64,000 nucleotides of DNA from Escherichia virus TH47. The stretch's first letter is position 1. Every line of letters begins with the position of its first letter. The position numbers were made by a program, and so were the translations under genes. This document shows, one piece after another, positions 1-13,863 of the stretch. The stretch is taken from the sequence record MT446416.1. One strand, given 5' to 3'. The notes beneath the pieces were generated by a model, which saw nothing but the letters and a program-made list of their open reading frames with translations, ran no database searches and had not been told where the DNA came from.

Positions 1-375
1 GCTATTATTATCGATATACACCTTCACTCCACTTTCAAGATAATCATTTTCTTTGGAGTTGAAGTTTCTAATAGCAAACTTGACTCCATTTGTTGTATCC
101 GTGAATACATATCGTTCAGCACCGTAGAATGTTCTACCACGAAATAAACTGCCGTCTTCCCACTTCCAACGACTGGAATCATAATCATTAACGTAATCAA
201 TGATTAATGGTAGCAAAGGGTGTTTGCTCAATTTATATTTTGCTTCTAACAGAACACGACGATCTTGATCTGTATTGATACTATCTTTAAGTGAAAAACT
301 TTTTGATATAATTTTAAAGATAATTTCATGCCAAATTAAAGTACTGTTTTGTTTTCCAACTGGGCCAAAAAACAT
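1..375 (-). CDS. hypothetical protein, N-terminal part only (gene runs off the window start)
   Basis: ATG at 373-375 with GAGGA 6 nt upstream; frame stays open to position 1 (about 125 codons); immediately downstream of the stop of the 388-954 gene. Confidence 0.45.
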   Translation of the reverse strand, partial: MFFGPVGKQNSTLIWHEIIFKIISKSFSLKDSINTDQDRRVLLEAKYKLSKHPLLPLIIDYVNDYDSSRWKWEDGSLFRGRTFYGAERYVFTDTTNGVKFAIRNFNSKENDYLESGVKVYIDNNS

Positions 376-387
376 ATTCATTCCTCA

Positions 388-954
388 TTAATATAAATCA
401 GTAATGTCTTTGTATGCATTAAACTGTTTTTGTTGTAATGAAAGTTCATTGAGTTTAGTTACCATTTTATCTACACCGATACGTGTATAGAAAATAATAA
501 ATGAATCTAAATTGCCTAGAGTAATTCTTGAACTGAAATTTGAAAGTTTTCTTGCATAAACATAAATTTCTTCTTCACTTGGTAAACGTTTCTCAATCAG
601 CAAGTTTTCCACAACATTCGGCTCATAAACAATCTCGAACTCTACGCCTATCACAGTATCTTGAATGATATCAGTATATGAACCACCGAAAAAAAACTCT
701 CTTGGTTTGGTTCTCCAACGAGGACTAAATGGGTCAGATGCGTATTCTTTTACAAATTTGTAAAAGGACATTTTACTGAGCATATACTTCATCTCAATTA
801 GTGCTTTGCGGTCATCATCAGTTTTAAACTCTGCTTTGAGCGATGGACTTTTACACAGTAACTTAACTAAATTGTTGTACATCTTTAATGTACGTTGGTC
901 TTTCATTTCTTTGATTTTGTGACGCTTTGGTGGTGGTAGTAAAGATTTGACCAT
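388..954 (-). CDS. hypothetical protein
   Basis: 188-aa ORF, AGGAGGA Shine-Dalgarno upstream of the ATG; no recognisable motif. Confidence 0.55.
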   Translation of the reverse strand: MVKSLLPPPKRHKIKEMKDQRTLKMYNNLVKLLCKSPSLKAEFKTDDDRKALIEMKYMLSKMSFYKFVKEYASDPFSPRWRTKPREFFFGGSYTDIIQDTVIGVEFEIVYEPNVVENLLIEKRLPSEEEIYVYARKLSNFSSRITLGNLDSFIIFYTRIGVDKMVTKLNELSLQQKQFNAYKDITDLY

Positions 955-987
955 AATTTCCTCCTGTATTTTCTAGTATTATACACA

Positions 988-1016
988 TAAAAGAAAAGCC
1001 CGTCAATAGACGAGCT
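988..1016 (-). terminator. rho-independent terminator (minus-strand sense)
   Basis: Stem AGCCCGTC/GACGAGCT (one G-U pair) with a 4-nt loop, followed on the minus strand by TTTCTTTT; 9 nt after the stop of the 1025-3754 gene. Confidence 0.5.
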
Positions 1017-1024
1017 TAAAATTT

Positions 1025-3754
1025 TTAATGCCAACGTGTACCAGAGCTTGAAGGAACACCAGAACTTGCAGGGATAGCAGAACCACGCTTGGTTGTACTA
1101 GGTCTGTATGTCAAGAATCGTGTTACCTTTTCAGTATCAATTGACGTGATACTCGTACTTCCAGTAACAATATCACCTACGTATACGTTTGTCAATGTCT
1201 CATCAAGAAGAGTTGTACTGATAACGTATGCCGCTTTTCTTGTGTTACGGTTCATTTGAATGTAAAGATAAAAAGTACTGTTAGCTGGGTTAGTTTTAAT
1301 AGTACTTAATTCTATATTTTGAATCGCTAATCTATCAAACATACCACCAAGGAATACCGGAACTTCACGGGTGAAGTACACAGTGAAACCTTCAGCAACA
1401 TCTTGTGAAACTACTACGATTTTATCTTGTACAGTTCCTGAACCATCAATCAACCCATCCATCTGTGCTGATGTTGTCCCAAAGAGACTAAACACTGCTT
1501 TGGTTTGATAATCTGAATCTTGTAGATGATAGTATCCAAATCCAACACCTGGTATAACTCCGTGCTGGAATGCATTGCCATTATCTATGTAGCTGGATGA
1601 CATAAAACGGTTAGATGTAATCAAACCATTCACTGTTTTAGCAATCATCAATTTGAATTGAGCATTACCCGGTTGTGAAAACTGATGAACTGCATCAACA
1701 CCAATATAACCAAAACCAGAATATTTAGCAACAGTTAGACCTGTACAGCGTTTCATATAGGCTTCGGTTACAATACCTGTTACAGAATTAAGTGTTTCGT
1801 ATCTAGAACTCACCATAGTCGCAGAACTAATATTGGTTCCTGAAACAGTGACATCAACTTCAGAATATATTGCATAACCTTGGTTATTGCCTAAGTTATA
1901 TGCAGAAACCACCGCAATAGATTTTGAGAAAGAACTATCTGGTACATAATATAAAGCAATTTTACCAGAAAATGCTCCTACTATTCCAATATTAGCAAGT
2001 ATTTCTTGTTTTAATGTTTCCAGAACATTATCATCAATTGTATAAGAACCATCAAATTCTAAAGTATCTGGGTTAAACAAACCACCACTTGTTTTGTATA
2101 CACCTTCAATGAATGATGTCCCATAACATTTAACTGAACCGTCAGTATCAATTAGTGAAATCATACCTGTATATTTGAAATCATCACCAAGACGAATTCG
2201 ATTAGCTTGTGGAGCAAAACCATTAAGTGTTGTATTGTTTTGTACTGAATTGAACTGGAAGGTTGGATCAGTACCAATTTCAGAAAATACTGTATTGTTA
2301 TAACCATATGACTCACCTTCATATGTTCCAGAACATGCTAACAGTACTTTACGTTTATCAATAAAACGTGTTCCTAAAAGGTTTTCACCTACTGCACTAC
2401 CATATGTTGGGGCAACGTTTACAAATTTGGAATTGTTCGCTTTACGAGTACTGGCAATCCAACTATCATATGGTGTTCCTGTTACGTTGTAAACCTGAAT
2501 ACCATAGGTTTCAGATGAACTCCAACGAGCACGAGTGCTGAATACTAAACCGTCATAGGTTTGGCATATAGAACCAACGTTACCTAATAGTGGAACACCT
2601 AACTGTGTACCCATGAAGTTATTCATCTCAATTGCAAATGGGTTTGTTAGTGTGAATCCATCAACATCATTATATCCCGCAGCTATTGGTGCTCTACTAC
2701 TTCCATCAATTGATAATGATTTAGAGTTGATAGTGTAAACAAAACTAAAACCACTAGCATAAACAGTACTAATATATAGATTTGATACTAAACGGTTAGT
2801 TGGGAATAATGTAATTCTAATCTTTGATAAATCGGGACTTACGTTTGCTTGTATATTATAATCTGTATAATCTGAATATTCAACTCGTGTAACTGGTGAA
2901 GTGCATTCAAATAATGAATCACTGCTAGTTCCAACTGAATATAATCTTTCATAAATTTTCAAATTATTAGCACTTGTGTAGTTAACACTTCTTAAGGTTT
3001 GACCAGAAAAACCAGTAACCTTAGCAAAAGTACTCATAGTACCATCTTTAATACTACTTGTATCAACAGTATATAATGTTAAAGCCAAACCATAGTTTGC
3101 TATAGTAGTGTCTTTGCACCACACAAATACTTTATCATTAACGATATGTGCATATAATGGTTTATCTGTACCAAATGCTGTACCAGCGATAGAAGCGTGA
3201 ATATGTGCAACTTCGTTAAATGTACCATTTGTTAAAGTGAAAATATAATTACTTGCACTTGATAGACTAACTAGCAATTCATAACCATTCGTTCCGATGA
3301 ATTGTTTAACATTTTCAGTACTTGGAAGAATTCTAGGATGATATTTTGATGTAGTACTGATAACACTACTTTGTGTTAGTACATCAATATTACGTAAATC
3401 ACGAATAAATGCGTAGTAATATCCTTCAGTACTACCATTTGTACCAGCACGTAAAACCACACCAGTACCATCATCTTCGACTATTGTTGGTTGCATACGG
3501 TATACATTTGAAAGCGATGTTGCACCTTCGTATGAACCATTAACGTTTAAAGGTAGATAATCCATTTCCCCTATACGGGAGATTGGTAACATATCAAGTA
3601 TTTTTTGAACTTCTGATCTTTTATAAATTGGATAGTCAACAATACCTGTATTTGCGTCTGGTGCTGTACCATTAAAAGTACGCATAGCGTACTTTCCACC
3701 AATTGCCAAATTTCCAAGTATAGCAGCACTACCAATGATGCGTTTGGATGACAT
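1025..3754 (-). CDS. tail-fibre-like structural protein (paralog 3, 909 aa)
   Basis: Long Ser/Thr/Gly/Asn-rich ORF; shares an N-terminal LPIS-x-G-x(3)-YLP motif and a C-terminal module of about 110 aa (VYFT...RPSTT-x-GS-x-P-x-S-x-G-x-P...GT-x-W) with the 3771-4358 and 4371-7067 proteins. Confidence 0.6.
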   Translation of the reverse strand: MSSKRIIGSAAILGNLAIGGKYAMRTFNGTAPDANTGIVDYPIYKRSEVQKILDMLPISRIGEMDYLPLNVNGSYEGATSLSNVYRMQPTIVEDDGTGVVLRAGTNGSTEGYYYAFIRDLRNIDVLTQSSVISTTSKYHPRILPSTENVKQFIGTNGYELLVSLSSASNYIFTLTNGTFNEVAHIHASIAGTAFGTDKPLYAHIVNDKVFVWCKDTTIANYGLALTLYTVDTSSIKDGTMSTFAKVTGFSGQTLRSVNYTSANNLKIYERLYSVGTSSDSLFECTSPVTRVEYSDYTDYNIQANVSPDLSKIRITLFPTNRLVSNLYISTVYASGFSFVYTINSKSLSIDGSSRAPIAAGYNDVDGFTLTNPFAIEMNNFMGTQLGVPLLGNVGSICQTYDGLVFSTRARWSSSETYGIQVYNVTGTPYDSWIASTRKANNSKFVNVAPTYGSAVGENLLGTRFIDKRKVLLACSGTYEGESYGYNNTVFSEIGTDPTFQFNSVQNNTTLNGFAPQANRIRLGDDFKYTGMISLIDTDGSVKCYGTSFIEGVYKTSGGLFNPDTLEFDGSYTIDDNVLETLKQEILANIGIVGAFSGKIALYYVPDSSFSKSIAVVSAYNLGNNQGYAIYSEVDVTVSGTNISSATMVSSRYETLNSVTGIVTEAYMKRCTGLTVAKYSGFGYIGVDAVHQFSQPGNAQFKLMIAKTVNGLITSNRFMSSSYIDNGNAFQHGVIPGVGFGYYHLQDSDYQTKAVFSLFGTTSAQMDGLIDGSGTVQDKIVVVSQDVAEGFTVYFTREVPVFLGGMFDRLAIQNIELSTIKTNPANSTFYLYIQMNRNTRKAAYVISTTLLDETLTNVYVGDIVTGSTSITSIDTEKVTRFLTYRPSTTKRGSAIPASSGVPSSSGTRWH

Positions 3755-3770
3755 ATTCTTTTTCCTTTAA

Positions 3771-4358
3771 TTACCAGTCTAATGTACCAGTTTGTGTTGG
3801 ATTTCCAGTACTGACTGGGAAAGATGAACCTTTTTGTGTTGTACTTGGTCTGTATGTATTGAATCGTGATACGCGTTCAATGTTGATAGCAGTAATACCA
3901 GAAGTTCCAACGGTAATAGTCCCGATGAACATTATAATCTGTGATTCTTGTAATTGTGAAGTTGAGATTCTATAAATTGGCTCACCCAGTACTAAAGTAG
4001 CGTATACATATTGTGTTTGTGTTCCTGATGCCACTGTTGGTGCTGTCACTGCAACAACAGGGTAATTATAAAGATAGCCTCCGATGAATGCAGGTATCTC
4101 TCGGTTAAAACGTAATGAATAACCGCTTGATGTAATTGACAAACTAGATACATCATAAAGTTCACCATATTGTGATAATGGTAAACCGTTAACAATAGAA
4201 TCAACTTCATCTTTTGTTAAGAGGGGGAATGTACATTCCCCATTTGCGTCTGTTCGATACGATACGTCATTAATATCACTAATAGATAGTCCAGTGTTTT
4301 TATTCTGGACTACGATTTGTGACATAGCTTCGATATCGGATCTTATAATATATGCCAT
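3771..4358 (-). CDS. short tail-fibre paralog (195 aa; N-terminal motif plus shared C-terminal module only)
   Basis: C-terminus RFNTYRPSTTQKGSSFPVSTGNPTQTGTLDW aligns with the C-termini of both large neighbours; 16-nt gap to the next gene with an AAAGGA Shine-Dalgarno. Confidence 0.55.
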   Translation of the reverse strand: MAYIIRSDIEAMSQIVVQNKNTGLSISDINDVSYRTDANGECTFPLLTKDEVDSIVNGLPLSQYGELYDVSSLSITSSGYSLRFNREIPAFIGGYLYNYPVVAVTAPTVASGTQTQYVYATLVLGEPIYRISTSQLQESQIIMFIGTITVGTSGITAINIERVSRFNTYRPSTTQKGSSFPVSTGNPTQTGTLDW

Positions 4359-4370
4359 AAGATTAATCCT

Positions 4371-7067
4371 TTACCAATTGATTGTTCCTGTTTGTGACGG
4401 TAGACCATAACTAACTGGGAATGAAGAACCAGCAGCTTCAAGCGACGCACCGAAAATATCCAATCTTGAACGTTTTTGTATGTTAACATTTGATATTTGT
4501 AGTGAGTTTGTTTGTATAGTACCTATCCAGAAAATATTATATGCTGTAGTACCAGTCTCTGAAATAACATCAGTTGTTATTACATATTTTGCATTACCTT
4601 GTTCCATTTTAACATATACATGAAATAATGTGTTTGCCGGATTAGCCTTAACTGTAGTTAAGTTTATACTAGTAATAGGTAATGTAAATGCTTTACCAGA
4701 AAGAATTACTGGAGTTTCTTCTGTGAAGTACACAATAAAACCTTGAGCAACGTCTTGTGAAACTACGTTAATCGGTGCACCTTGAGCAGTCCAGTTATTA
4801 TAATCAGCAATTGTAGTACCACATTTTTGGAAAGTCATTTTGTTTACATAGTCTATTGCTTGGAAATAACCAAAACCAATACCAGGTAAAGCTGCTGGTT
4901 GAATACCTTGCTCATAACTTGCATGTGAACCACTGATAATAAAACTATCAAATTGTGCAGTTGCTTTTGTTACATATGCTCTGAATTGGTGTGTGTTTGT
5001 ATTACCAATAGTTGGGTGAGATAATGGGTCAGAACCACCTATGAAGTAGAAAGAACCACCATCATATATTGTTAAACCAACAGAAGACGATGCAAAACTA
5101 CCATTACCATTTGGTGTAAAGTTACTTCCGTAAACGTTTTCTAGTACTAAACGCTTGAAGGTAATTGTAGTGATATTACCTGAACGTGTATTCACATTCA
5201 CTTCAGCAATTCTAATATAGTTCTGATATGTATTTGTAACTGTACTTAGCATTACGAATGCAGGTATATCAGTTTGTTGTGGAACAAACAATGTCATATC
5301 TTTATAAGCAGCAGGAGATAAGTTCCAGTCGCTTAGTACTTTAGCGTATTCAGCATTTCTGAAATTATCAAGTACTGATTGAGTAACACTAATGATACCA
5401 GTTCCGTTCATATTTTTATCATATGATAGTGATTGGGAATATCTCTGACCTACCATGAATATCCCACCATTTGTAGTAACATTATTACCACTAATGGAAC
5501 TAATAAAAACTCTGTTGTTAGTGTTATCTGTCACATTAGCACGTTCTGTTGTTGGCTCATAACCTTGTATGGTTCCACGTGATAAAGAATTAAACGTAAA
5601 GTTAGGAGTACTTTTATGAACTGCATAAGATGGACGGAATGCACCAGAACCAGTTGAACGAGAATACTGTTTAGTACTGTTCCCTGGAAGCAATTCTACT
5701 CCGTTAATAAAAGAACCAACTGCTGAACCAAATGAAGGACGGACTATACCATTTCTGAAATCAGTTGAAATGTTCGCACGTACATTGATCATGCTATATA
5801 TTGATTGCGAAGTAAATTTAGCTTTCTGCATAAGTAATGGTTCTGCTAAGTTTGGACATGCAGTACAGAATACATCACCTGTATTCAGATAATAATATGA
5901 ACTGTAAATATTTCTTGCACCGTTATGGTCATATAACGGATCTTTGTTGAGAACATTACCAGTAGCAACCAATGCCGAACCTGTGTTTGTGACAACCAAT
6001 GGTGCAGCAAATGTACCAATATCGTTCCCAGTATCCAAGTTACATTGTTTAGTACTCATGTTAAAATTGAAACTATAACTATGCTGTGGTCGGGTATTGT
6101 AGTTTGCCATAGTGAACCATGCGTCACCATTCATTCTGAATCGGAAGTTCTGCGTTCCTGGCTCCTGAGCAACATATAAATCGATAGATGTCATATAAAT
6201 CCCCATACCAGCCAAATTTTGTGGTACATAGACATAGGGCTTATCAGCTATATTAGTTGAGTTAACATGGTCAGTAATGATTATATTATTCTGAGAAGTA
6301 TATGTAGTATTGTAAAAAGTTTTTGTTGTCCACCCCGTGATTCGGGTAGCAGTATAAGTACCGTTTGCAATATTCAACACAACACGAACAACAACAATCT
6401 GTAGTTTGTTATTTTCATTAAGGACGTTGAATACATAAACTGAACCGTCTTCTGCCATCATAGCATACTCAATCCCACCTTCAGGTGAAATATCAGCTTG
6501 GTTCACAAAAAGACCACTATGTTGTGTATCATCCAATGTACCATTCGTTACTGATATAAACAACCCATTAGTACTGGTAGATGTGTCATTGTAACGACCT
6601 AACAGTATTTTTGAATCGGTATTGTATAAACCAATAGCAACACGGTTTGCCCCGAAATAGCCAGGCTTATACTGACGGCTTGTATTAACAGTACGACTCA
6701 TATCGGTAACTGATAATGCGTTCGCTAGGTAAGAATAAAACAAACCTTCAACACTACCGTTTGTACCACTACGTAATAGTACTAATGTGCCATCGTTTTC
6801 TAAAAGTATTTTGTTTCTACGTTGGGATTGGTTTTCTGATGCACCATTAAAATCACCAGATACCCCAGCAGGTAGATAGTTATGTGTACCATAATGCGAG
6901 ATTGGAAGTAAACTAATTACATCAAGTAATTCTTCTTTGGAATATGTATCAATTTCCATATTACCATTAGCATCAAATACTTGATCATTGATGCCCTGTA
7001 CTGTTCTTTTCCCTTTAACTGTCACATTATGAGTGACGTCTAAGCCACCATATATTTTCTTTGACAT
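4371..7067 (-). CDS. tail-fibre-like structural protein (paralog 1, 898 aa)
   Basis: Same N-terminal and C-terminal modules as 1025-3754; AAGGGA Shine-Dalgarno upstream of the ATG. Confidence 0.6.
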   Translation of the reverse strand: MSKKIYGGLDVTHNVTVKGKRTVQGINDQVFDANGNMEIDTYSKEELLDVISLLPISHYGTHNYLPAGVSGDFNGASENQSQRRNKILLENDGTLVLLRSGTNGSVEGLFYSYLANALSVTDMSRTVNTSRQYKPGYFGANRVAIGLYNTDSKILLGRYNDTSTSTNGLFISVTNGTLDDTQHSGLFVNQADISPEGGIEYAMMAEDGSVYVFNVLNENNKLQIVVVRVVLNIANGTYTATRITGWTTKTFYNTTYTSQNNIIITDHVNSTNIADKPYVYVPQNLAGMGIYMTSIDLYVAQEPGTQNFRFRMNGDAWFTMANYNTRPQHSYSFNFNMSTKQCNLDTGNDIGTFAAPLVVTNTGSALVATGNVLNKDPLYDHNGARNIYSSYYYLNTGDVFCTACPNLAEPLLMQKAKFTSQSIYSMINVRANISTDFRNGIVRPSFGSAVGSFINGVELLPGNSTKQYSRSTGSGAFRPSYAVHKSTPNFTFNSLSRGTIQGYEPTTERANVTDNTNNRVFISSISGNNVTTNGGIFMVGQRYSQSLSYDKNMNGTGIISVTQSVLDNFRNAEYAKVLSDWNLSPAAYKDMTLFVPQQTDIPAFVMLSTVTNTYQNYIRIAEVNVNTRSGNITTITFKRLVLENVYGSNFTPNGNGSFASSSVGLTIYDGGSFYFIGGSDPLSHPTIGNTNTHQFRAYVTKATAQFDSFIISGSHASYEQGIQPAALPGIGFGYFQAIDYVNKMTFQKCGTTIADYNNWTAQGAPINVVSQDVAQGFIVYFTEETPVILSGKAFTLPITSINLTTVKANPANTLFHVYVKMEQGNAKYVITTDVISETGTTAYNIFWIGTIQTNSLQISNVNIQKRSRLDIFGASLEAAGSSFPVSYGLPSQTGTINW

Positions 7068-7100
7068 ACATATCCCTTGTAATTTAGATATTAGTTACTG

Positions 7101-7108
7101 TATTTATG
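7101..7108 (-). promoter_or_regulatory. candidate T4-late-type promoter (CATAAATA on the minus strand)
   Basis: Minus-strand CATAAATA about 35 nt upstream of the first tail-fibre ATG, between the nrdG terminator and the fibre operon; T4 late consensus is TATAAATA. Confidence 0.3.
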
Positions 7109-7116
7109 AATGTACT

Positions 7117-7137
7117 AAAAAAGCACCCATTGGGTGC
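7117..7137 (-). terminator. rho-independent terminator
   Basis: GCACCC-ATT-GGGTGC hairpin followed on the minus strand by TTTTTT; 7 nt after the nrdG stop. Confidence 0.55.
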
Positions 7138-7143
7138 TTGTGT

Positions 7144-7614
7144 TTAAAAGTCTTTATTTTTATATAAAATTCGTTGGTTATTTGAACCACGAAAAGGTAA
7201 TGTTAAATTCTTTTCTTCTGAAACAAATTTACCATCAACTAATACATCTAAGTACTGAAGAATGTCTTTAGCATGATTATCCATAATCTCTTCTAACGTA
7301 TATCCACTCCAGCACCAAATAGTTTTATTGGGATAAGTCTCTTTTACAATCTTACATAGTTCTAAAATTGTTTCTATGTTCTTTTTCATTAGAGGATCTC
7401 CACCAAGGAGGGATAATCCACTAACGTAAGGCTTACTGAGTTCAGCTAAAATTATATCAATTGTATCAGTACTGAACTCTTGTCCACTTCGGTAGTCCCA
7501 TGCATGTTCTGAGTAACATCCGGGGCATCCATGTGAACAACCGCTTACGAAAAGTGAACATCTAACACCTTCACCATTTATCAAATCATCTTTGAAAATT
7601 GCCATATAATTCAT
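7144..7614 (-). CDS. nrdG: anaerobic ribonucleotide reductase activating protein (radical SAM)
   Basis: N-terminal CSHGCPGCYS cysteine cluster (CxxxCxxC-type radical SAM motif); about 156 aa; adjacent to nrdD and grcA; ATGA start/stop overlap with the upstream gene. Confidence 0.85.
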   Translation of the reverse strand: MNYMAIFKDDLINGEGVRCSLFVSGCSHGCPGCYSEHAWDYRSGQEFSTDTIDIILAELSKPYVSGLSLLGGDPLMKKNIETILELCKIVKETYPNKTIWCWSGYTLEEIMDNHAKDILQYLDVLVDGKFVSEEKNLTLPFRGSNNQRILYKNKDF

Positions 7615-8597
7615 TTAATATTCCTTACTAGGTTATTTAAAATCTCCACATGGTTTTCATCATAACGTATTCTGATAAACTGTATATTATTGTCTATACA
7701 GAACTTTGTTTTTATATTGTCATTAATTTGTCTATTAATAAATTCTTTCTCCCCTCCCCAATGTTCAAAAATTTCATAATGTTGTTTACCATCATATTCT
7801 ATTAATATATTATAATCATTCAAATATATGTCAAATGGTAATTTTTGTTTGTTGTAACATTCAGGGAATTTTTTTTCTCGTTCAAAAGATATATTATTTT
7901 TTGTCAATATTTCAATTATATCATACATAGCTTTTGATGTGCTAGTATGTAACGCACACTCTGGGCATCCTCTTCCTGAGTTTAATGATGTTGGTGTAAT
8001 ATTAAATTCATGACCTTTTTCACAAATTGCAATACTAGGAGTTCTTACATTTATATATTTGAATTTATTAAAATTGTAATCTTTGAATTTATTATTTGAT
8101 TTTATTTTTGATATAAAATAATCTGAATCAATATTATGTTTTCTCCCATTTTTCATTTTACAAAGTTCACATCCAGTATTTCCTCTCAAGAAGGTTCTTG
8201 CTCTCAATGTTTTGGATTTTTTATGGATATTACACATAACTGTTATATTATCAACCATGCGAGTATAATCACTGATTAGTGTGAATTTATCTCCATAAAT
8301 TTTATTCATTTCTTGTATGAATTCATATTTTGATTTTGTTATTTTATTATCAGAACATTTTTTACAGCCCTTCCCACTTAAAAGTATATTTGGTGTTGAA
8401 TAAAAATCCGTTTTACATATGTTACAGTGGACATGTATTTTACATTGTGACCCGCCGTATTCATTTAAAAATGTGAATTTTTGTCCATGTATTAACAAAA
8501 TCTTATTAATGAATTCTTCATGTGTAAGTTTACGTGGCATTATTAAAACTCCTTTGACATTTGTGATGTTTATAAATGCCAAAGGGTATATCCTCAT
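7611..8597 (-). CDS. putative free-standing homing-endonuclease-like protein (zinc-ribbon repeats plus C-terminal DUF559/Vsr-like nuclease motif)
   Basis: Three L-x-x-G-x-G-C-x-x-C repeats and a C-terminal ...ILIEYDGKQHYE... motif; more AT-rich than its neighbours and contains no AGTACT. Confidence 0.45.
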   Translation of the reverse strand: MRIYPLAFINITNVKGVLIMPRKLTHEEFINKILLIHGQKFTFLNEYGGSQCKIHVHCNICKTDFYSTPNILLSGKGCKKCSDNKITKSKYEFIQEMNKIYGDKFTLISDYTRMVDNITVMCNIHKKSKTLRARTFLRGNTGCELCKMKNGRKHNIDSDYFISKIKSNNKFKDYNFNKFKYINVRTPSIAICEKGHEFNITPTSLNSGRGCPECALHTSTSKAMYDIIEILTKNNISFEREKKFPECYNKQKLPFDIYLNDYNILIEYDGKQHYEIFEHWGGEKEFINRQINDNIKTKFCIDNNIQFIRIRYDENHVEILNNLVRNIK

Positions 8598-8927
8598 TTA
8601 ATTATCGTCTGGTAATTCATCTAGTATTGCACTCACTATTTCAACGAGAACATCACCATGACATGATTTTGGTTTACAGAAACAACCAAGACGTTTCCCT
8701 GCTAATTCAAGTAAATCATCAATTTTAACTTCGCCATTAGAAATACGTTCAATTATGTATTCTCTGAACTTTTCGATTGATTCTTCCCTTGTAGCAACAA
8801 TGAACTCGGCCTTAGTCTGTTTATCATTGATATGGGTAAATGGGTTACCCCATTTAGACCCACGACCAATGTACACATCATACGGTTCTTTGTATTTGTT
8901 AACCACAATTGGCTTTAAATCCATCAA
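8598..8927 (-). CDS. DUF4326-family protein
   Basis: [12 protein letters not shown] ... [13 protein letters not shown] signature. Confidence 0.6.
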
Positions 8928-9283
8928 ATTTCCTTTGTAAAGGTACGAGAAATTACATCATCTTGTTGTTCTTTTGTTAGTGAATTGAAACGAACAGCAT
9001 AACCACTAACACGAATAGTAAGTTGCGGATACTTTTCTGGATTGTTTTGTGCATCAATGAGTTGTTCTTTAGATAAAACATTTACATTCAAATGTTGACC
9101 ACCCTCAATAACTGGTTCATGTTTGACCTGTACATCACGTAGAACCTCACCATCAAAAGTACTCAATAGTACTTCATCATCTTCGGAAAAAGTTTTAGAT
9201 ACTACAATTTTTACAACATCATCTTCTTTTAGAAAAATAGTACCACGATGTTCACCTGACATTACCTGTTTAGCTTCTAACAT
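8924..9283 (-). CDS. grcA: autonomous glycyl-radical cofactor (GrcA/YfiD-like)
   Basis: C-terminal ...[11 protein letters not shown]...[35 protein letters not shown] matches the glycyl-radical motif (RVSGYAV) and flanks as I recall them for E. coli GrcA; AAGGAG Shine-Dalgarno. Confidence 0.85.
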
Positions 9284-9351
9284 ATATTTCTCCTTAATTT
9301 TATTTCAGTGTTTTTTTAATATTCTATCATCAAACGATATTTTATAAACAA

Positions 9352-9386
9352 ATGAACAAAAAAAATAGATTCTTTGTTCATTTTTT
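9352..9386. terminator. hairpin with flanking T-runs (terminator-like, orientation ambiguous)
   Basis: ATGAACAAA / TTTGTTCAT 9-bp stem with a 12-nt A-rich loop, followed by TTTTTTC on the plus strand; lies between nrdD and grcA. Confidence 0.35.
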
Positions 9387-9404
9387 CATTTCATAATTAG
9401 TTTA

Positions 9405-9439
9405 CTCGATTTAATTTTAAATATTTATGTTAAATCGAG
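9405..9439. repeat. perfect 10-bp inverted repeat (CTCGATTTAA / TTAAATCGAG) with a 15-nt spacer
   Basis: Read directly from the sequence, 8 nt downstream of the nrdD stop; no T-run follows on the minus strand. Confidence 0.4.
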
Positions 9440-9446
9440 ACAATTA

Positions 9447-10331
9447 TTATAAATGGCGAATTCTCTGAATCACTTCATCTTGCTTTCCTTTATTGAATGG
9501 GCGACTATTTGGTGCACTAAGATATCCGCTAACTCTTCGAATAACTGACATAGATTTTTCATCTCTATTATTACAAACTGGACAGTGGAAACCGTTTTTA
9601 TCGACGCTGAATTCACCTTCAAAATTACATTTATGACAATGATCAACTGGCTGGTTTATTCCAAAATATGGAATTTTTTCATAGGCATAATTGATTAATG
9701 TTTCAAGTGCTTGAATGTTGTTTGTTAAGTTTGGTGTTTCGACATAGCTAATATTACCACCATTGCTTAGATAAGCAAAGTTTTCCTCATAATCCCACTT
9801 TTCAAAAGCAGAACTTTCAACCCATACTGGTTGATGGAATGAATTTGTAATATAATTACGTTTTAGTACTGAAGGGTACTTAGATTCGATGCAACGTGCA
9901 AATTTGTAGCAAAGTGACTCTGCTGGGGTTCCATATAGACTAAAAGCTATGTTACTCTCTTTTTTGAACTCATCGCATTTAACTTTCATATAATTCAGTA
10001 CTGACATACAAAACTCCTTACTGATAGAACCAGTGAGGATTTCTGAACATTCAACAAGTCCAACATAACCAATACTAATACTAGCATAACCATTGTAAAA
10101 TAGTTTGTCAATAGTTTCTTCTGCACCTAAACGTGCTAATGCACCTTCCATGAACAAAATTGGATTCTGTTTCGCTTTAGTGCCTTTTAAACGCTCTACA
10201 CGGTTCATCTGAGCACGATATGCAATATTCATATGCTCATCTATCTTATCAAAAAACTCTCCATCTGAGGCACTTTCAAGAGCAATTAACGGTAGGTTGA
10301 TTGAGACAACCATTTGTACCTTCACTTTCAT
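9447..10331 (-). CDS. nrdD: anaerobic ribonucleoside-triphosphate reductase, C-terminal exon (ORF extends into the intron; true exon probably begins near 10310)
   Basis: C-terminal zinc ribbon CHKCNFEG...CPVCNN followed by the glycyl-radical motif RRVSGYL; the first codons (MKVKVQM) are probably intron sequence. Confidence 0.8.
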   Translation of the reverse strand: MKVKVQMVVSINLPLIALESASDGEFFDKIDEHMNIAYRAQMNRVERLKGTKAKQNPILFMEGALARLGAEETIDKLFYNGYASISIGYVGLVECSEILTGSISKEFCMSVLNYMKVKCDEFKKESNIAFSLYGTPAESLCYKFARCIESKYPSVLKRNYITNSFHQPVWVESSAFEKWDYEENFAYLSNGGNISYVETPNLTNNIQALETLINYAYEKIPYFGINQPVDHCHKCNFEGEFSVDKNGFHCPVCNNRDEKSMSVIRRVSGYLSAPNSRPFNKGKQDEVIQRIRHL

Positions 10332-10354
10332 GAAGGATTAGAGTACACCATACT

Positions 10355-11194
10355 CTAACGAAGAGGAAATGACATATAACCAAGTTTATTTGATAGTTCT
10401 TTATATCCAGAACCGTTATTGATATTTGCAACAGTTTTTCTTCCTACATTTAAACATTTTGCAATTTCGGAATAATTTTTATCTGTATTAATTAGCATAT
10501 CAATAATCTTAGAAACTGTTTTAATAGAATGACGTTTTGATGAATTTTGTGGTTTAAAAATTGGGTATTCAAGTGATTTATTTCGATAGATTACTCCATT
10601 ATTAACATTACAAATGGTGACATTTGAAACATTATATATTTTTGCAATTTCTATACTAGAAACACCATTTCTTAATAACTCATAAATTGAATCTATATTA
10701 TCTTCAATCTTATTTCTTTTGTTATCTCTAATAGGGTATGTTTCATTTATTTGATACCAAGTTTCGCCACAATTTATATCACTAACACAGCCGTATGGGA
10801 CATTTAAAGTTTTTGCTATTTCTACAAATGAAAGATCTTTATGTGATTTGATATATTCTATAATTTTGATAGCATCAATTTCAGTTATTTTACTTCCATT
10901 GAAGGTTTGGTTACCACCTAATGTTGAGTTGTAACCATTCTTATAACTATCATAAATTTCAATATATTTTATTTCTTCATCATTAAGATTATTTAAATCA
11001 ATATTAGTTTTTAAAATTTGAAATGTAAAATTTTCAAAGCCAAATTTTTTAATAGCTTTACTAATACATGATTTTTCATCATTGTTGTTACAGTGTTCCA
11101 CCCATCTTTTCATCGGTGGATATAAAACAGTTTGTCCAATATAAACTTTATTAGTTACTATACACTCTATTTTATATATGCTTCCTTTTCTCAT
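10355..11194 (-). CDS. intron-encoded GIY-YIG homing endonuclease (I-TevII-like)
   Basis: N-terminal IYKIECIVTNKVYIGQT...W..H GIY-YIG motif; GGAGGA Shine-Dalgarno; lies inside the nrdD interruption. Confidence 0.75.
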   Translation of the reverse strand: MRKGSIYKIECIVTNKVYIGQTVLYPPMKRWVEHCNNNDEKSCISKAIKKFGFENFTFQILKTNIDLNNLNDEEIKYIEIYDSYKNGYNSTLGGNQTFNGSKITEIDAIKIIEYIKSHKDLSFVEIAKTLNVPYGCVSDINCGETWYQINETYPIRDNKRNKIEDNIDSIYELLRNGVSSIEIAKIYNVSNVTICNVNNGVIYRNKSLEYPIFKPQNSSKRHSIKTVSKIIDMLINTDKNYSEIAKCLNVGRKTVANINNGSGYKELSNKLGYMSFPLR

Positions 11195-11218
11195 TATATA
11201 TCCTCCATAAAATATTAT

Positions 11219-11226
11219 TTATGGAA
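11219..11226 (-). promoter_or_regulatory. candidate late-type promoter (CATAAATA) inside the intron, upstream of the homing endonuclease ORF
   Basis: Minus-strand CATAAATA about 24 nt upstream of the endonuclease ATG; same variant as upstream of the tail-fibre operon. Confidence 0.25.
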
Positions 11227-11456
11227 GTTTTAATATTAGAGTCACGTATTATACTCGTTGAACCTTCCACCATTCTAAAATGATAGCTTGGCTGCTGATT
11301 TCCCATTTTTTGTGCATATGAACTGATTTACAACTTTTCATATATCCATAATTCTTTTTTCTACTCTCGTAACATTCACGTTTATCTATTAAGATTGCGT
11401 TGTAGTGATTATGGCTTTAGGGGGTTCCAGCATGTTAACGTGTTTGCTATTACTGC

Positions 11457-12452
11457 TCACGCAGCAAAGGGGCATGTATGTCTACCCAAGTTGAAACGAC
11501 CGTTATATTGCTCATTTCCATTTGAATCTTCCCATTTTCCTAAGAATGAACGACAGCCCATCGGTGTTACAGCAGTGCTATTACTTCCCGTCACTTTGTG
11601 ATTTAATGGAACTGAAACAAAGTCTGGGTAGATTCTCTTCGATGCACAACGCATTGCCAACTGTTTCATGTCATAGTTGCAATCATCGCTATTCATGTTG
11701 ATTCCGTCCTGTAAAAAGAAAATTACTTTAGGAAACACTGGAGTAATCTTATCTTTGCCTAAACCATTCTCATGTACTTTTAAGTACTGTTCAGTGATTA
11801 ATTTGCCAAATTTTGAAGTATTCAGTCCTAAACTAAGAGAAATGAATGCTGCTTGTCCGTTTGTACTAATCATTGAATTTGTCTGGTAAAGTAAGGTTTG
11901 ACACCCATCATAGACTTCTTTTCGTAATTCTTCCTCAATGTATTCAGTACTGAGATTATATGCCTTTTGCTTCGCTAATAGCTTATCCCACGACTTTTGG
12001 ACGTAAGGTTCAAGACCAACGTCAATATGAGCCAATGATTGACCACCGTACTGGGAACTAGCAACAGCCTGAACAATTTGTGTCAGTACTGTACATGCTA
12101 CACTAAAACTCTTTGGTTCTTCAATTTTTGCACAACCAATGGTAAATCCATTTTTTAGCATATCTGGGTAGTTAACCAAGCAACAGTTAGTTAATGGGCT
12201 GATATAGTAGTCTAAATCATGAATGTGACCATAACCATCATTATGCCACTGCATTAGCTCCTTTGGAATAACATCTTGTGAATAATGTTTAGATAGGATA
12301 CCAGCAAGTAAATCCCTGTGTGTATTGACGCATTTCGCATCTTTGTTTGCATTTTCATTTGTAAGATCAGTATTGCTCTGATTTAGGAAATTTGTTACGT
12401 CAGTATATAATTTATCTAATTGCATTTTACTTTCCTTGTATTTTGAAATCAT
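11457..12452 (-). CDS. nrdD: anaerobic ribonucleoside-triphosphate reductase, N-terminal exon (ORF reads through into the intron; 5' splice site probably near 11484)
   Basis: ...PMGCRSFLGKWEDSNGNEQYNGRFNLG; continuity with the downstream exon ORF; the last 8 codons (RHTCPFAA) are probably intronic. Confidence 0.8.
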   Translation of the reverse strand: MISKYKESKMQLDKLYTDVTNFLNQSNTDLTNENANKDAKCVNTHRDLLAGILSKHYSQDVIPKELMQWHNDGYGHIHDLDYYISPLTNCCLVNYPDMLKNGFTIGCAKIEEPKSFSVACTVLTQIVQAVASSQYGGQSLAHIDVGLEPYVQKSWDKLLAKQKAYNLSTEYIEEELRKEVYDGCQTLLYQTNSMISTNGQAAFISLSLGLNTSKFGKLITEQYLKVHENGLGKDKITPVFPKVIFFLQDGINMNSDDCNYDMKQLAMRCASKRIYPDFVSVPLNHKVTGSNSTAVTPMGCRSFLGKWEDSNGNEQYNGRFNLGRHTCPFAA

Positions 12453-12563
12453 CTGGGGGTGAAGTTATTTAACATCACCAGACACCATTATAGCGTCAGA
12501 ACAGGGTATTTCTCTTGATCTATATCAAGGAAAGGTCACATTGCTTTTTATTTGCACAAATAG

Positions 12564-12584
12564 AAAAAGCACCTCTAGGGTGCT
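12564..12584 (-). terminator. rho-independent terminator
   Basis: AGCACC-loop-GGTGCT hairpin followed on the minus strand by TTTTT; between the small ORFs and the nrdD start. Confidence 0.5.
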
Positions 12585-12701
12585 TTAAAGTACTGCTAAT
12601 ATAAAAACTGCCCAAATTAGCAGTACTACATTGGTTGGAGCGGCAAAAAACATATATGCAGCAAGTGCACTGCATCCGATTACAAGTTTAGCTAGTCTCA
12701 T
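12585..12701 (-). CDS. small hydrophobic peptide (38 aa, MRLAKLVIGCSALAAYMFFAAPTNVVLLIWAVFILAVL)
   Basis: Not in the ORF track (below its size cutoff); ATG at 12699-12701; two predicted hydrophobic segments; contains a perfect 12-bp inverted repeat; a terminator follows immediately. Confidence 0.25.
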   Translation of the reverse strand: MRLAKLVIGCSALAAYMFFAAPTNVVLLIWAVFILAVL

Positions 12702-12873
12702 CTGGACTCCATGTAATAGTCACAGTAAATGTGCCTTCTTGGAAACCAAACTCATCTTGTGGGATTTGTCCAGCTAATGGGTTAAATCTTGAATCGAATG
12801 CTTCATGTACGTCTCGCTGAATATCATAGAGACTTTCACCATCGTATTCTTTTTTAAAGATTTCATTCTGCAT
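12688..12873 (-). CDS. hypothetical protein (61 aa)
   Basis: Minus-strand ORF in an operon-like array. Confidence 0.4.
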   Translation of the reverse strand: MQNEIFKKEYDGESLYDIQRDVHEAFDSRFNPLAGQIPQDEFGFQEGTFTVTITWSPDETS

Positions 12874-13273
12874 TTATACGTACCGACCCTCGTATTCTGT
12901 CTGGATATCCATCAAATAGATCAATGAATTGGTTTAACGCATAAGTACTGAAGAATGGATTATTCTTTGCAATTTCTATGCGTTTTTCAATATCCATTAA
13001 TATAATCTCTGGTCTACTGAAATTACCTTTACGTCTATATGTTAGTAAACGCTCTTTGTGTCCTCTGAACTGAAATTCAAAATATGTTGATGATGTGTAA
13101 TCACTTCCATCAGGAATCGGAATTGAAAAATCAACATTGTACTTATAACCAATTGCGAAAAAATAACCACCATCTTCTAACGGTATAGTTGCATCATTTA
13201 GATGAAAATCGATTTCATCTCCTAACATATCAAATATTTTGGTACTTAGAGACATAAAATCATCGACTAACAT
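12863..13273 (-). CDS. hypothetical protein
   Basis: 136-aa ORF, packed with neighbours. Confidence 0.5.
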   Translation of the reverse strand: MLVDDFMSLSTKIFDMLGDEIDFHLNDATIPLEDGGYFFAIGYKYNVDFSIPIPDGSDYTSSTYFEFQFRGHKERLLTYRRKGNFSRPEIILMDIEKRIEIAKNNPFFSTYALNQFIDLFDGYPDRIRGSVRINAE

Positions 13274-13284
13274 GTCTTTTTACC

Positions 13285-13503
13285 TTATCTTATAACTCGA
13301 CAGTAGTACTGAATAATGTAAGGAAATAAAGGATTATTTACGTATGTTGCAAAATTAGCTATTGTAACTTTTTTATAGTAAAAGTTGTGAATTGTTATAA
13401 TAGTGTGAGGATCTATTGAATCTCTATTAGAGAGTTCAACATAACGCCCACACTTCATATAAGCCTTACCATAATAATCGTAAATTATATCGTATTTTTC
13501 CAT
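13285..13503 (-). CDS. hypothetical protein
   Basis: 72-aa ORF. Confidence 0.45.
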   Translation of the reverse strand: MEKYDIIYDYYGKAYMKCGRYVELSNRDSIDPHTIITIHNFYYKKVTIANFATYVNNPLFPYIIQYYCRVIR

Positions 13504-13863
13504 TTACTCAGGATCTTTATTTTTATCAACTGTGTTGTTTTTATTCAAATCAATTTGCAAAGCCATTGCAGCTTCAGCATTTTCTTCATGTGTACCATTG
13601 AATTTATACCCATTCTTGATGAGATTCACTGTGTAGTACTTATTATAAAGAAATGCCCATACGATCATGGCAATAGAACCTACAATCCAAAAAGACACTG
13701 CGTTTAGGATGAAGTAAATTACAAATGCACCGATAAACGTAATAAAGTCACCACGGAACAATGCAGGGAAAGGTCCAAAAAATAATGTGGTCCAAGAAAA
13801 ACCATAGAAGCCATCTTTTCGTTGTCCTACCTTTTCATTTTTTAAAGAAATTGTTTTAGCCAT
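13504..13863 (-). CDS. small membrane protein
   Basis: Two hydrophobic helices (FITFIGAFVIYFILNAVSFWIVGSIAMIVWAF). Confidence 0.55.
   Translation of the reverse strand: MAKTISLKNEKVGQRKDGFYGFSWTTLFFGPFPALFRGDFITFIGAFVIYFILNAVSFWIVGSIAMIVWAFLYNKYYTVNLIKNGYKFNGTHEENAEAAMALQIDLNKNNTVDKNKDPE

Follow-up and report, generated by a model that had tools for sequence, protein, structure and literature searches.

Three paralogous genes downstream of nrdG in the Rak2-like jumbo phage TH47: probable baseplate-anchored virion proteins and a retained short form lacking its centre

Gene order and signals at the locus

We examined a 64,000-nucleotide stretch of DNA from Escherichia virus TH47 (sequence record MT446416.1; hereafter the window) and focus here on three consecutive minus-strand genes downstream of nrdG, which encode proteins of 898, 195 and 909 amino acids (aa; paralogs 1, 2 and 3). 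Over the window, DNA identity reaches 97.7% to phages fEgEco12, WPEC3 and Ecwhy_1 and about 78% to PBECO4, 121Q and phAPEC6, and these identities to Escherichia phages place the source among the Asteriusvirus-type (Rak2-like) jumbo myophages. An earlier interpretation made from the letters alone (the sequence-only reading) had correctly delimited the three open reading frames (ORFs). It had described their products as tail-fibre-like proteins built from shared end modules around unrelated centres, with the 195-aa protein as a minimal fusion of the two modules. We show here that the three proteins are paralogs, the short one having lost its centre by internal deletion, and propose that all three are probably low-copy virion proteins anchored on the tail baseplate via a common anchoring domain.

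The block begins 76 nucleotides (nt) after the end of nrdG, and its genes are separated by spacers of 12 and 16 nt, both with Shine-Dalgarno-like sequences, and the 195-aa gene is translationally coupled inside the operon (Table 1). As the sequence-only reading had it, a terminator-like hairpin and a late-promoter-like octamer, ATAAATAC, lie between nrdG and the first start codon. The positions of both hairpin (7139-7121) and octamer are kept in phAPEC6, Pectobacterium phage CBB and Yersinia phage fHe-Yen9-04, where the flanking sequence differs; CBB and fHe-Yen9-04 also have hairpins where the one at 1017-996 closes the TH47 block. Neither ATAAATAC nor CATAAATA is enriched within the 64-kb window, and the late-promoter assignment therefore draws on this conservation and on a resemblance to the T4 late promoter TATAAATA. 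Scans of the window for sigma-70 promoters and terminators, taken as a whole, stayed at chance level, and an Rfam scan of positions 1-13000 returned no family match. The segment from 7139 to 996 is probably a three-gene transcription unit expressed late.

The next gene downstream (388-954, 188 aa) belongs to phrog_18641, function unknown, and has a near-consensus sigma-70-like promoter of its own (TTGACG-17-TATAAT, 978-1006), which overlaps the terminator of the triplet. Comparison with the same-position genes of CBB and fHe-Yen9-04 reveals no clear homology (E 0.07), and given both observations we leave this gene outside the unit.

Table 1. Features of the three-gene block, in window coordinates
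Feature	Position	Strand	Description
Terminator-like hairpin	7121..7139	-	Directly after nrdG; AAGCACCC-AAT-GGGTGCTT followed by a T run; from a hairpin scan
ATAAATAC, late-promoter-like octamer	7100..7107	-	First ATG lies about 33 nt downstream
Paralog 1, 898 aa	4371..7067	-	N-terminal LPISHYG..YLP peptide, beta-propeller-type centre, beta-sandwich region, shoulder module, C-terminal tail
Paralog 1, beta-propeller-type central region, ~aa 86-561	5385..6812	-	Fastest-evolving part
Paralog 1, shoulder-type module, ~aa 775-870	4458..4745	-	Matches the 195-aa protein and phrog_26864
Paralog 1, C-terminal tail, aa 871-898, ...GSSFPVSYGLPSQTGTINW	4374..4457	-	Disordered in the monomer model
Paralog 2, 195 aa	3771..4358	-	N-terminal 68 aa, shoulder module, C-terminal tail
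Paralog 2, shoulder-type module, ~aa 75-168	3855..4136	-	
Paralog 3, 909 aa	1025..3754	-	Architecture as paralog 1
Paralog 3, shoulder-type module, ~aa 787-880	1115..1396	-	phrog_26864 match over residues 787-906
Paralog 3, conserved C-terminal tail	1028-1114	-	Directly after the shoulder module
Terminator-like hairpin	996..1017	-	8 nt past the paralog 3 stop; closes the three-gene block

Paralogy of the three proteins and origin of the short form

An alignment of the two large proteins runs over their whole length (26% identity, E 1e-55), and a profile made exclusively from orthologs of the 898-aa protein matches residues 3-906 of the 909-aa protein without a break (E 3e-107), so that the centres of the two are homologous as well and not unrelated as had been supposed. 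Compared on their own, the centres give E 1e-9 and score 47 bits, where the best of 100 shuffled comparisons scored 22 bits; pairwise alignment misses the relationship only at roughly residues 270-440, which have diverged too far. Ser, Thr, Gly and Asn are abundant in the proteins, and the 195-aa one is poor in Lys and Arg; the similarity between the centres holds with and without SEG masking and composition correction, and the shared similarity survives these filters and shuffling alike. The shared termini reflect real homology, and low complexity is not its cause.

At the C-terminus, the last ~120 aa of the 195-aa protein match those of both large proteins (E 7e-22 for the 909-aa protein and 1e-17 for the other, 32% identity), which upholds the proposed shared module except for its RPSTT signature, absent from the 898-aa protein. 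Matches of its N-terminal ~65 aa to the N-termini of the large proteins are weak (E 2e-4 and 2e-5). There the claimed common motif survives in part: LPxSxxG is present in all three proteins, and the YLP that follows it in the large ones is missing after LPLSQYG in the 195-aa protein. Over 39 orthologs, the two ends have a mean column identity of 0.61-0.75 and the centre one of 0.35-0.55, in agreement with the earlier description of conserved ends around a more variable middle. No further copy of the family was found in the 64-kb window.

To trace the short protein, the most informative relatives are CBB and fHe-Yen9-04, in which nrdG is followed by three full-length paralogs (902, 916 and 916 aa, and 928, 895 and 946 aa, respectively). 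Best hits between the window and CBB are one-to-one and collinear: the 898-aa protein pairs with gp147 (47% identity) and the 909-aa protein with gp149 (36%), while the 195-aa protein aligns with gp148 in two pieces, its residues 1-67 with residues 1-67 (41%, E 2e-12) and its residues 79-195 with residues 798-916 (44.5%, E 3e-31). When the C-terminal modules are joined in a neighbour-joining tree, three clades emerge and the short forms fall within that of the middle paralog, and the deletion junction maps after residue 68, with about 720 aa missing relative to CBB gp148, Yen g138, P0074 and P0076. Taken together, the gp148 hits, the module tree and the mapped junction identify the 195-aa protein as an internally deleted middle paralog instead of a fusion of two modules: judged by sequence comparison, it is the ortholog of the full-length middle paralog minus its centre.

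At least two different deletion junctions occur among the short forms. One of them, P0029 (199 aa), retains 'LPVAVSG' after LPLSQYG, with eight more residues at the junction than the 195-aa protein, and, in the module tree, falls together with a long form of 917 aa; its different junction and its grouping with a long form suggest that the centre may have been lost independently more than once.

Given its origin in a large internal deletion, and since the 195-aa protein went undetected in the virions of the related phage JP4, the ORF might be taken for a functionless, decaying remnant of a deleted paralog. This reading is contradicted by an intact ORF whose length of about 195 aa is kept nearly constant in 28 clusters down to 41% identity, together with 22 invariant residues; by a ratio of nonsynonymous to synonymous substitution rates (dN/dS) of 0.19 relative to phAPEC6, where the 898-aa gene gives 0.09; by the translational coupling within the operon; and by the wide occurrence of analogous short forms, of which that of phage Goslar is a stoichiometric virion protein (see below). 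We regard the remnant hypothesis as close to refuted; on this comparative evidence the 195-aa gene is under purifying selection and not decaying. All Asteriusvirus records hold three copies of the module.

Predicted folds, virion presence and relatives in other jumbo phages

A Pfam scan of the proteins gave no hits, and hence no fibre domain, and PDB sequence searches with both large proteins and both family profiles returned nothing usable. With AlphaFold2 and family alignments we modelled the 898-aa and 195-aa proteins, in both cases as monomers. The 898-aa model is confident (predicted local distance difference test score (pLDDT) 84.7, predicted template-modelling score 0.77); it is globular and all-beta and matches beta-propellers, at odds with the tail-fibre-like label; a Foldseek search against the PDB retrieved generic beta-propellers only, at low template-modelling scores. 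The predicted propeller centre resembles those of glycoside hydrolases and lectins (sialidase, GH43/32/130 and AAL-type) at the level of fold only, with 5-12% identity and no Pfam match.

The 195-aa model is confident across residues ~70-165 and is predicted to adopt the beta-sandwich fold of the shoulder domains found in receptor-binding proteins (RBPs) and related tail components, an assignment that we transfer to the module of paralog 1. The structural matches share 5-15% sequence identity with the module, and PDB sequence and profile searches detected no sequence homology between the module and the shoulder-domain proteins. In the lactococcal p2 RBP, the phage 1358 RBP, SPP1 gp22, the A-1(L) long tail fibre, HFTV1 gp42 and the T6SS protein TssK, the shoulder is N-terminal and the receptor-binding part comes after it, whereas in the TH47 proteins it appears to be C-terminal or possibly split around the central region. 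It is through its trimeric shoulder domain that the A-1(L) fibre attaches to the baseplate wedge (PMC10966104). Beyond the predicted TH47 module, the ~28 C-terminal residues come out as disordered in the monomer models of both proteins (pLDDT below 50 in the 898-aa one) and yet form the most conserved stretch of the 898-aa protein (0.75), with G880, G888, P890 and W898 invariant; a tail that is at once disordered and most conserved would suit a docking peptide.

Presence in virions is documented for orthologs of both large proteins. In phAPEC6, gp323c (the 898-aa ortholog) was found in virions with 4 peptides (PMC7247149), and in JP4, which is 85% identical, the orthologs of the 898-aa and 909-aa proteins (JP4_233 and JP4_235) were identified in virions by liquid chromatography-tandem mass spectrometry with 2 peptides each (PMC12648861, supplement 2), at low and similar abundance (PMC12648861). 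The expectation of the sequence-only reading that virion proteomics would reveal these proteins is thereby borne out for the large ones. In phAPEC6 (MK817115, 4022-7355) the 195-aa and ~909-aa ORFs are intact but unannotated, and its virion proteome could therefore not have reported them. The CMSTMSU record (MH494197, 4019-9930) has the three genes broken into about 12 fragments, two of which are labelled 'minor tail protein'; as these two records illustrate, public annotation of the triplet locus is unreliable.

The large proteins fall into phrog_3573 (E 4e-264 for the 898-aa and 9e-231 for the 909-aa protein), with further matches to phrog_7449 over ~820 residues (E 5e-38 and 4e-31, respectively), and the 195-aa protein into phrog_26864 (E 3e-83). 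By tblastn the family is present in 165 phage records, each record examined being a jumbo phage, and it extends to Chimalliviridae and Agricanvirus. Profile searches add Deimos-Minion gp19, gp20 and the module-only gp18 (420 aa), EL ORF114 and ORF115, Goslar gp26 (867 aa, E 7e-75) and SPN3US gp168 (E 4e-28). An exhaustive profile search found the module in 496 cluster representatives, the best 150 of which are bimodal in length, with ~55 below 260 aa and ~80 above 880 aa, and across the family the short forms join the LP motif directly to the module.

Two of these relatives are particularly informative. SPN3US gp168 is homologous to the TH47 proteins in two stretches, the start of the propeller and the shoulder module (E 4e-28; tblastn E 7e-7), and also matches phrog_7449. 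It belongs to a multi-copy 'baseplate/fiber' paralog family of phiKZ-related jumbo phages and was itself assigned by mutant proteomics as a tail 'baseplate/fiber' protein (PMC5105663). Unlike the TH47 proteins, it is 1727 aa long and has ~540 extra N-terminal and ~325 extra C-terminal residues, which make its module internal, as it also is in Deimos-Minion gp20. A published link of gp168 to phiKZ gp131 and ORF145 was not reproduced for this family in our searches, where phiKZ gp129-135, gp145 and gp146 gave no hit.

Goslar, a member of the Chimalliviridae, has, like the window, a long-plus-short set, consisting of gp26 and gp28 (169 aa, LP motif plus shoulder module). Against the 195-aa family, gp28 reaches an hhalign probability of 90% (E 1.6e-6) in an alignment that spans the LP motif and the module. 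The set differs from that of the window in having one long member, not two, and in the absence of the conserved C-terminal tail peptide from both proteins. Label-free quantification, good to about two-fold only, gives low/median/high copies per virion of 8.5/12.8/20.1 for gp26, 9.2/13.8/21.6 for gp27 and 9.5/14.3/22.4 for gp28, the 12-copy portal coming to 10.8/16.3/25.6 on the same scale (bioRxiv 10.64898/2026.04.21.720040, Table S4), and gp28 is found in virions at 61% sequence coverage (bioRxiv 10.64898/2026.04.21.720040). The three Goslar genes are adjacent (4860-8475), the family genes adjoin the S74 fibre gene gp25, and gp26, gp27 and gp28 were not placed in the cryogenic electron microscopy (cryo-EM) model, in which the peripheral baseplate is unresolved. 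Near-equimolar and unplaced, they are candidates for that density. A metagenomic relative (Logan SRR18476386, 119.9-kb contig, 2853-13540) carries a triplet of 902, 199 and 919 aa flanked by a 780-aa Peptidase_S74 spike protein and a 705-aa Beta_helix protein, both absent at this place in the window; its triplet is thus embedded among tail-spike-type genes.

These relatives bear on a further proposal of the sequence-only reading, namely that the C-terminal module is an intramolecular chaperone. Such a domain would promote folding of the trimer and be removed afterwards, with the 195-aa protein supplying it in trans as a free chaperone, and both the well-conserved C-terminal position, as in S74-type domains, and the Peptidase_S74 of the spike genes adjoining the triplet in relatives would fit. 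The very Pfam scan that finds S74 in those neighbouring spike genes detects in the module no Peptidase_S74 match (PF13884) even at E of 1 or below, nor any other Pfam match, and a shoulder beta-sandwich is what the model predicts. SPN3US gp168 and Deimos-Minion gp20 carry the module internally, and Goslar gp28, which comprises little beyond it, is retained in virions at the copy number of gp26. With no S74 signature, a different fold, an internal module in some homologs and gp28 retained in virions, we consider a chaperone role very improbable.

Among phages with a solved baseplate, phiKZ offers a likeness in architecture: its gp131 is likewise a jumbo-phage baseplate-periphery protein from a tandem paralog family with a beta-propeller as the distal domain, in its case C-terminal and seven-bladed (PMC13250141). 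In gp131 the anchor is N-terminal and the propeller C-terminal, whereas the TH47 propeller is predicted to lie between conserved ends, and we detected no sequence relation between the two. Two other phiKZ candidates, the outer-baseplate scaffold proteins gp27, also of 898 aa, and gp26, reach an hhalign probability of 0.1% each, the equal length of gp27 being coincidental; phiKZ gp127-135, gp145 and gp146, as well as EL ORF113 and ORF116, have no match to the family hidden Markov models. Without a phiKZ match, the solved phiKZ baseplate gives no direct template for placing the TH47 proteins.

Proposed assembly, neighbouring genes and implications

These data support a model where the three paralogs are low-copy virion proteins of the tail baseplate periphery and the 195-aa protein is an anchoring subunit without payload, most likely within a mixed trimer, an overall picture in which we place moderate confidence. 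The propeller-type centre would be the exposed, fast-evolving 'payload', probably binding glycans or another surface feature of the host, and would sit between a short N-terminal segment (a helix and the LPxSxxG strand) and the C-terminal shoulder beta-sandwich with its tail peptide. Oligomerisation and docking on the baseplate would fall to the shoulder module, probably assisted by the N-terminal helix, the LP strand and the C-terminal tail, much as shoulder domains serve for oligomerisation and anchoring in the RBPs of siphophages, in the A-1(L) long tail fibre and in TssK. This anchoring role is proposed by analogy. The tail location of the proteins in TH47 is likewise a proposal: the orthologs were detected in whole-virion proteomes, and tail was told apart from head for SPN3US gp168 itself. 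In-frame loss of ~720 central residues has left the 195-aa protein with the putative anchoring parts only, and it would have been retained because assembly still needs them in their structural position, most likely that of one subunit in a mixed trimer of the three paralogs. As module-bearing genes recur in threes and the long and short Goslar proteins are equimolar, we infer a 1:1:1 mixed trimer as the simplest account.

Several observations weigh against this picture. The 195-aa ortholog is missing from the 49 proteins detected in JP4 (PMC12648861) and, being unannotated, could not be scored in phAPEC6, while CBB gp148 and gp149 carry the label 'structural protein' but do not appear in the CBB mass-spectrometry table. 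In Goslar, the copy numbers are subject to the two-fold precision given above, and gp27, considered as a family member, could not be linked to it by profile comparison. In phiKZ, the family profiles find no match among the baseplate or fibre proteins compared with them (gp26, gp27, gp127-135, gp145 and gp146). Finally, we identified no sugar-binding or catalytic motif in the propeller region, active-site residues not having been part of the search.

A different place in the virion is suggested by the 'hairy', whisker-like appendages seen on the tails and capsids of phAPEC6 and CBB and are as yet unassigned in both phages (PMC7247149, PMC5259590), since our proteins are low-abundance virion components lacking an assigned place. 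The family also occurs in Chimalliviridae and Agricanvirus, SPN3US gp168 is assigned to the tail, the model is globular where the hairs are ~119 nm long, and a low copy number is ill-suited to covering a whole tail; we thus judge it improbable that the paralogs form these hairs and not a part of the baseplate.

A serious rival to the mixed trimer, which we nevertheless consider rather unlikely, is that each paralog forms a homotrimer of its own. There would then be three kinds of side appendage on the baseplate, with the 195-aa homotrimer acting as a payload-less plug or adaptor at the docking site of a lost appendage. The shoulder domains of the p2 RBP, TssK and the A-1(L) fibre are homotrimers, each paralog clade is conserved separately, and 18 copies of each protein would still be compatible with the JP4 abundances and the Goslar copy numbers, given their imprecision. 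Pointing the other way, three module-bearing genes recur in Asteriusvirus, CBB, fHe-Yen9-04 and Deimos-Minion, and a 1:1:1 complex explains more simply why Goslar gp26-gp28 are near-equimolar at about the level of the portal; neither observation is decisive.

Within the preferred mixed trimer, the N-terminal ~70 and C-terminal ~120 aa might even constitute a single shoulder domain split by insertion of the ~700-aa propeller, each subunit of one mixed trimer being free to lose its payload independently. We put this forward tentatively, as a possibility that the direct joining of the LP motif to the module in the short forms would fit and at which the two or more deletion junctions hint. If it is true, jumbo phages would tune the number of receptor-binding arms per anchor, CBB and fHe-Yen9-04 having three, Asteriusvirus and Deimos-Minion two and Goslar one.

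Three further observations concern the genes upstream of the block. The nrdD gene (9447-12452) is split into a 5' half (11457-12452, Pfam NRDD positions 1-283) and a 3' half (9447-10331, positions 280-562), between which lies a homing-endonuclease-type ORF with GIY-YIG and helix-turn-helix domains (10355-11194); nrdD is single and intact in JP4, phAPEC6 and CBB, and no Rfam intron family reaches its gathering threshold. The arrangement may represent an intron, an intein-less split gene or a disrupted gene. A 328-aa ORF with treble-clef zinc-finger motifs (DUF4379; 7611-8597), overlapping the nrdG start by 4 nt, has no megablast match in any phage record, not even in relatives whose sequence to either side is 97.7% identical, and probably represents a mobile gene acquired recently. 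A 119-aa ORF (8924-9283), located between nrdD and a DUF4326 gene, comprises little beyond a glycyl-radical domain (Pfam Gly_radical, E 1e-17). Relatives have a counterpart annotated as 'pyruvate formate-lyase', and the ORF may provide the anaerobic reductase with a spare glycyl-radical module.

Part of this was known already: the proteins fall into uncharacterised PHROG families and into the gp168-type paralog family of jumbo phages, and near-identical sequences are present in GenBank. What is added is the predicted shoulder fold of the C-terminal module, the derivation of the short protein from the middle paralog by deletion, and the observation that sets of long and short forms recur among jumbo phages. 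We see in this a useful annotation and a testable assembly hypothesis, and no new kind of system or biological principle.

Rak2-like jumbo coliphages are in development for therapy while their host-recognition apparatus is almost wholly unassigned, and the three genes are 'hypothetical' in most GenBank records and missing or fragmented in some. They now have a testable architecture of anchor, propeller payload and anchor, tied to SPN3US gp168 and to Goslar gp26 and gp28, and supply candidates for the unresolved peripheral baseplate density in cryo-EM maps of jumbo phages. The payload-less paralog is a natural experiment that separates the parts needed for assembly from those needed for function, and swaps of the central region may be of use in host-range engineering. 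Overall, a family that is widespread in jumbo phages and has been uncharacterised becomes easier to interpret.

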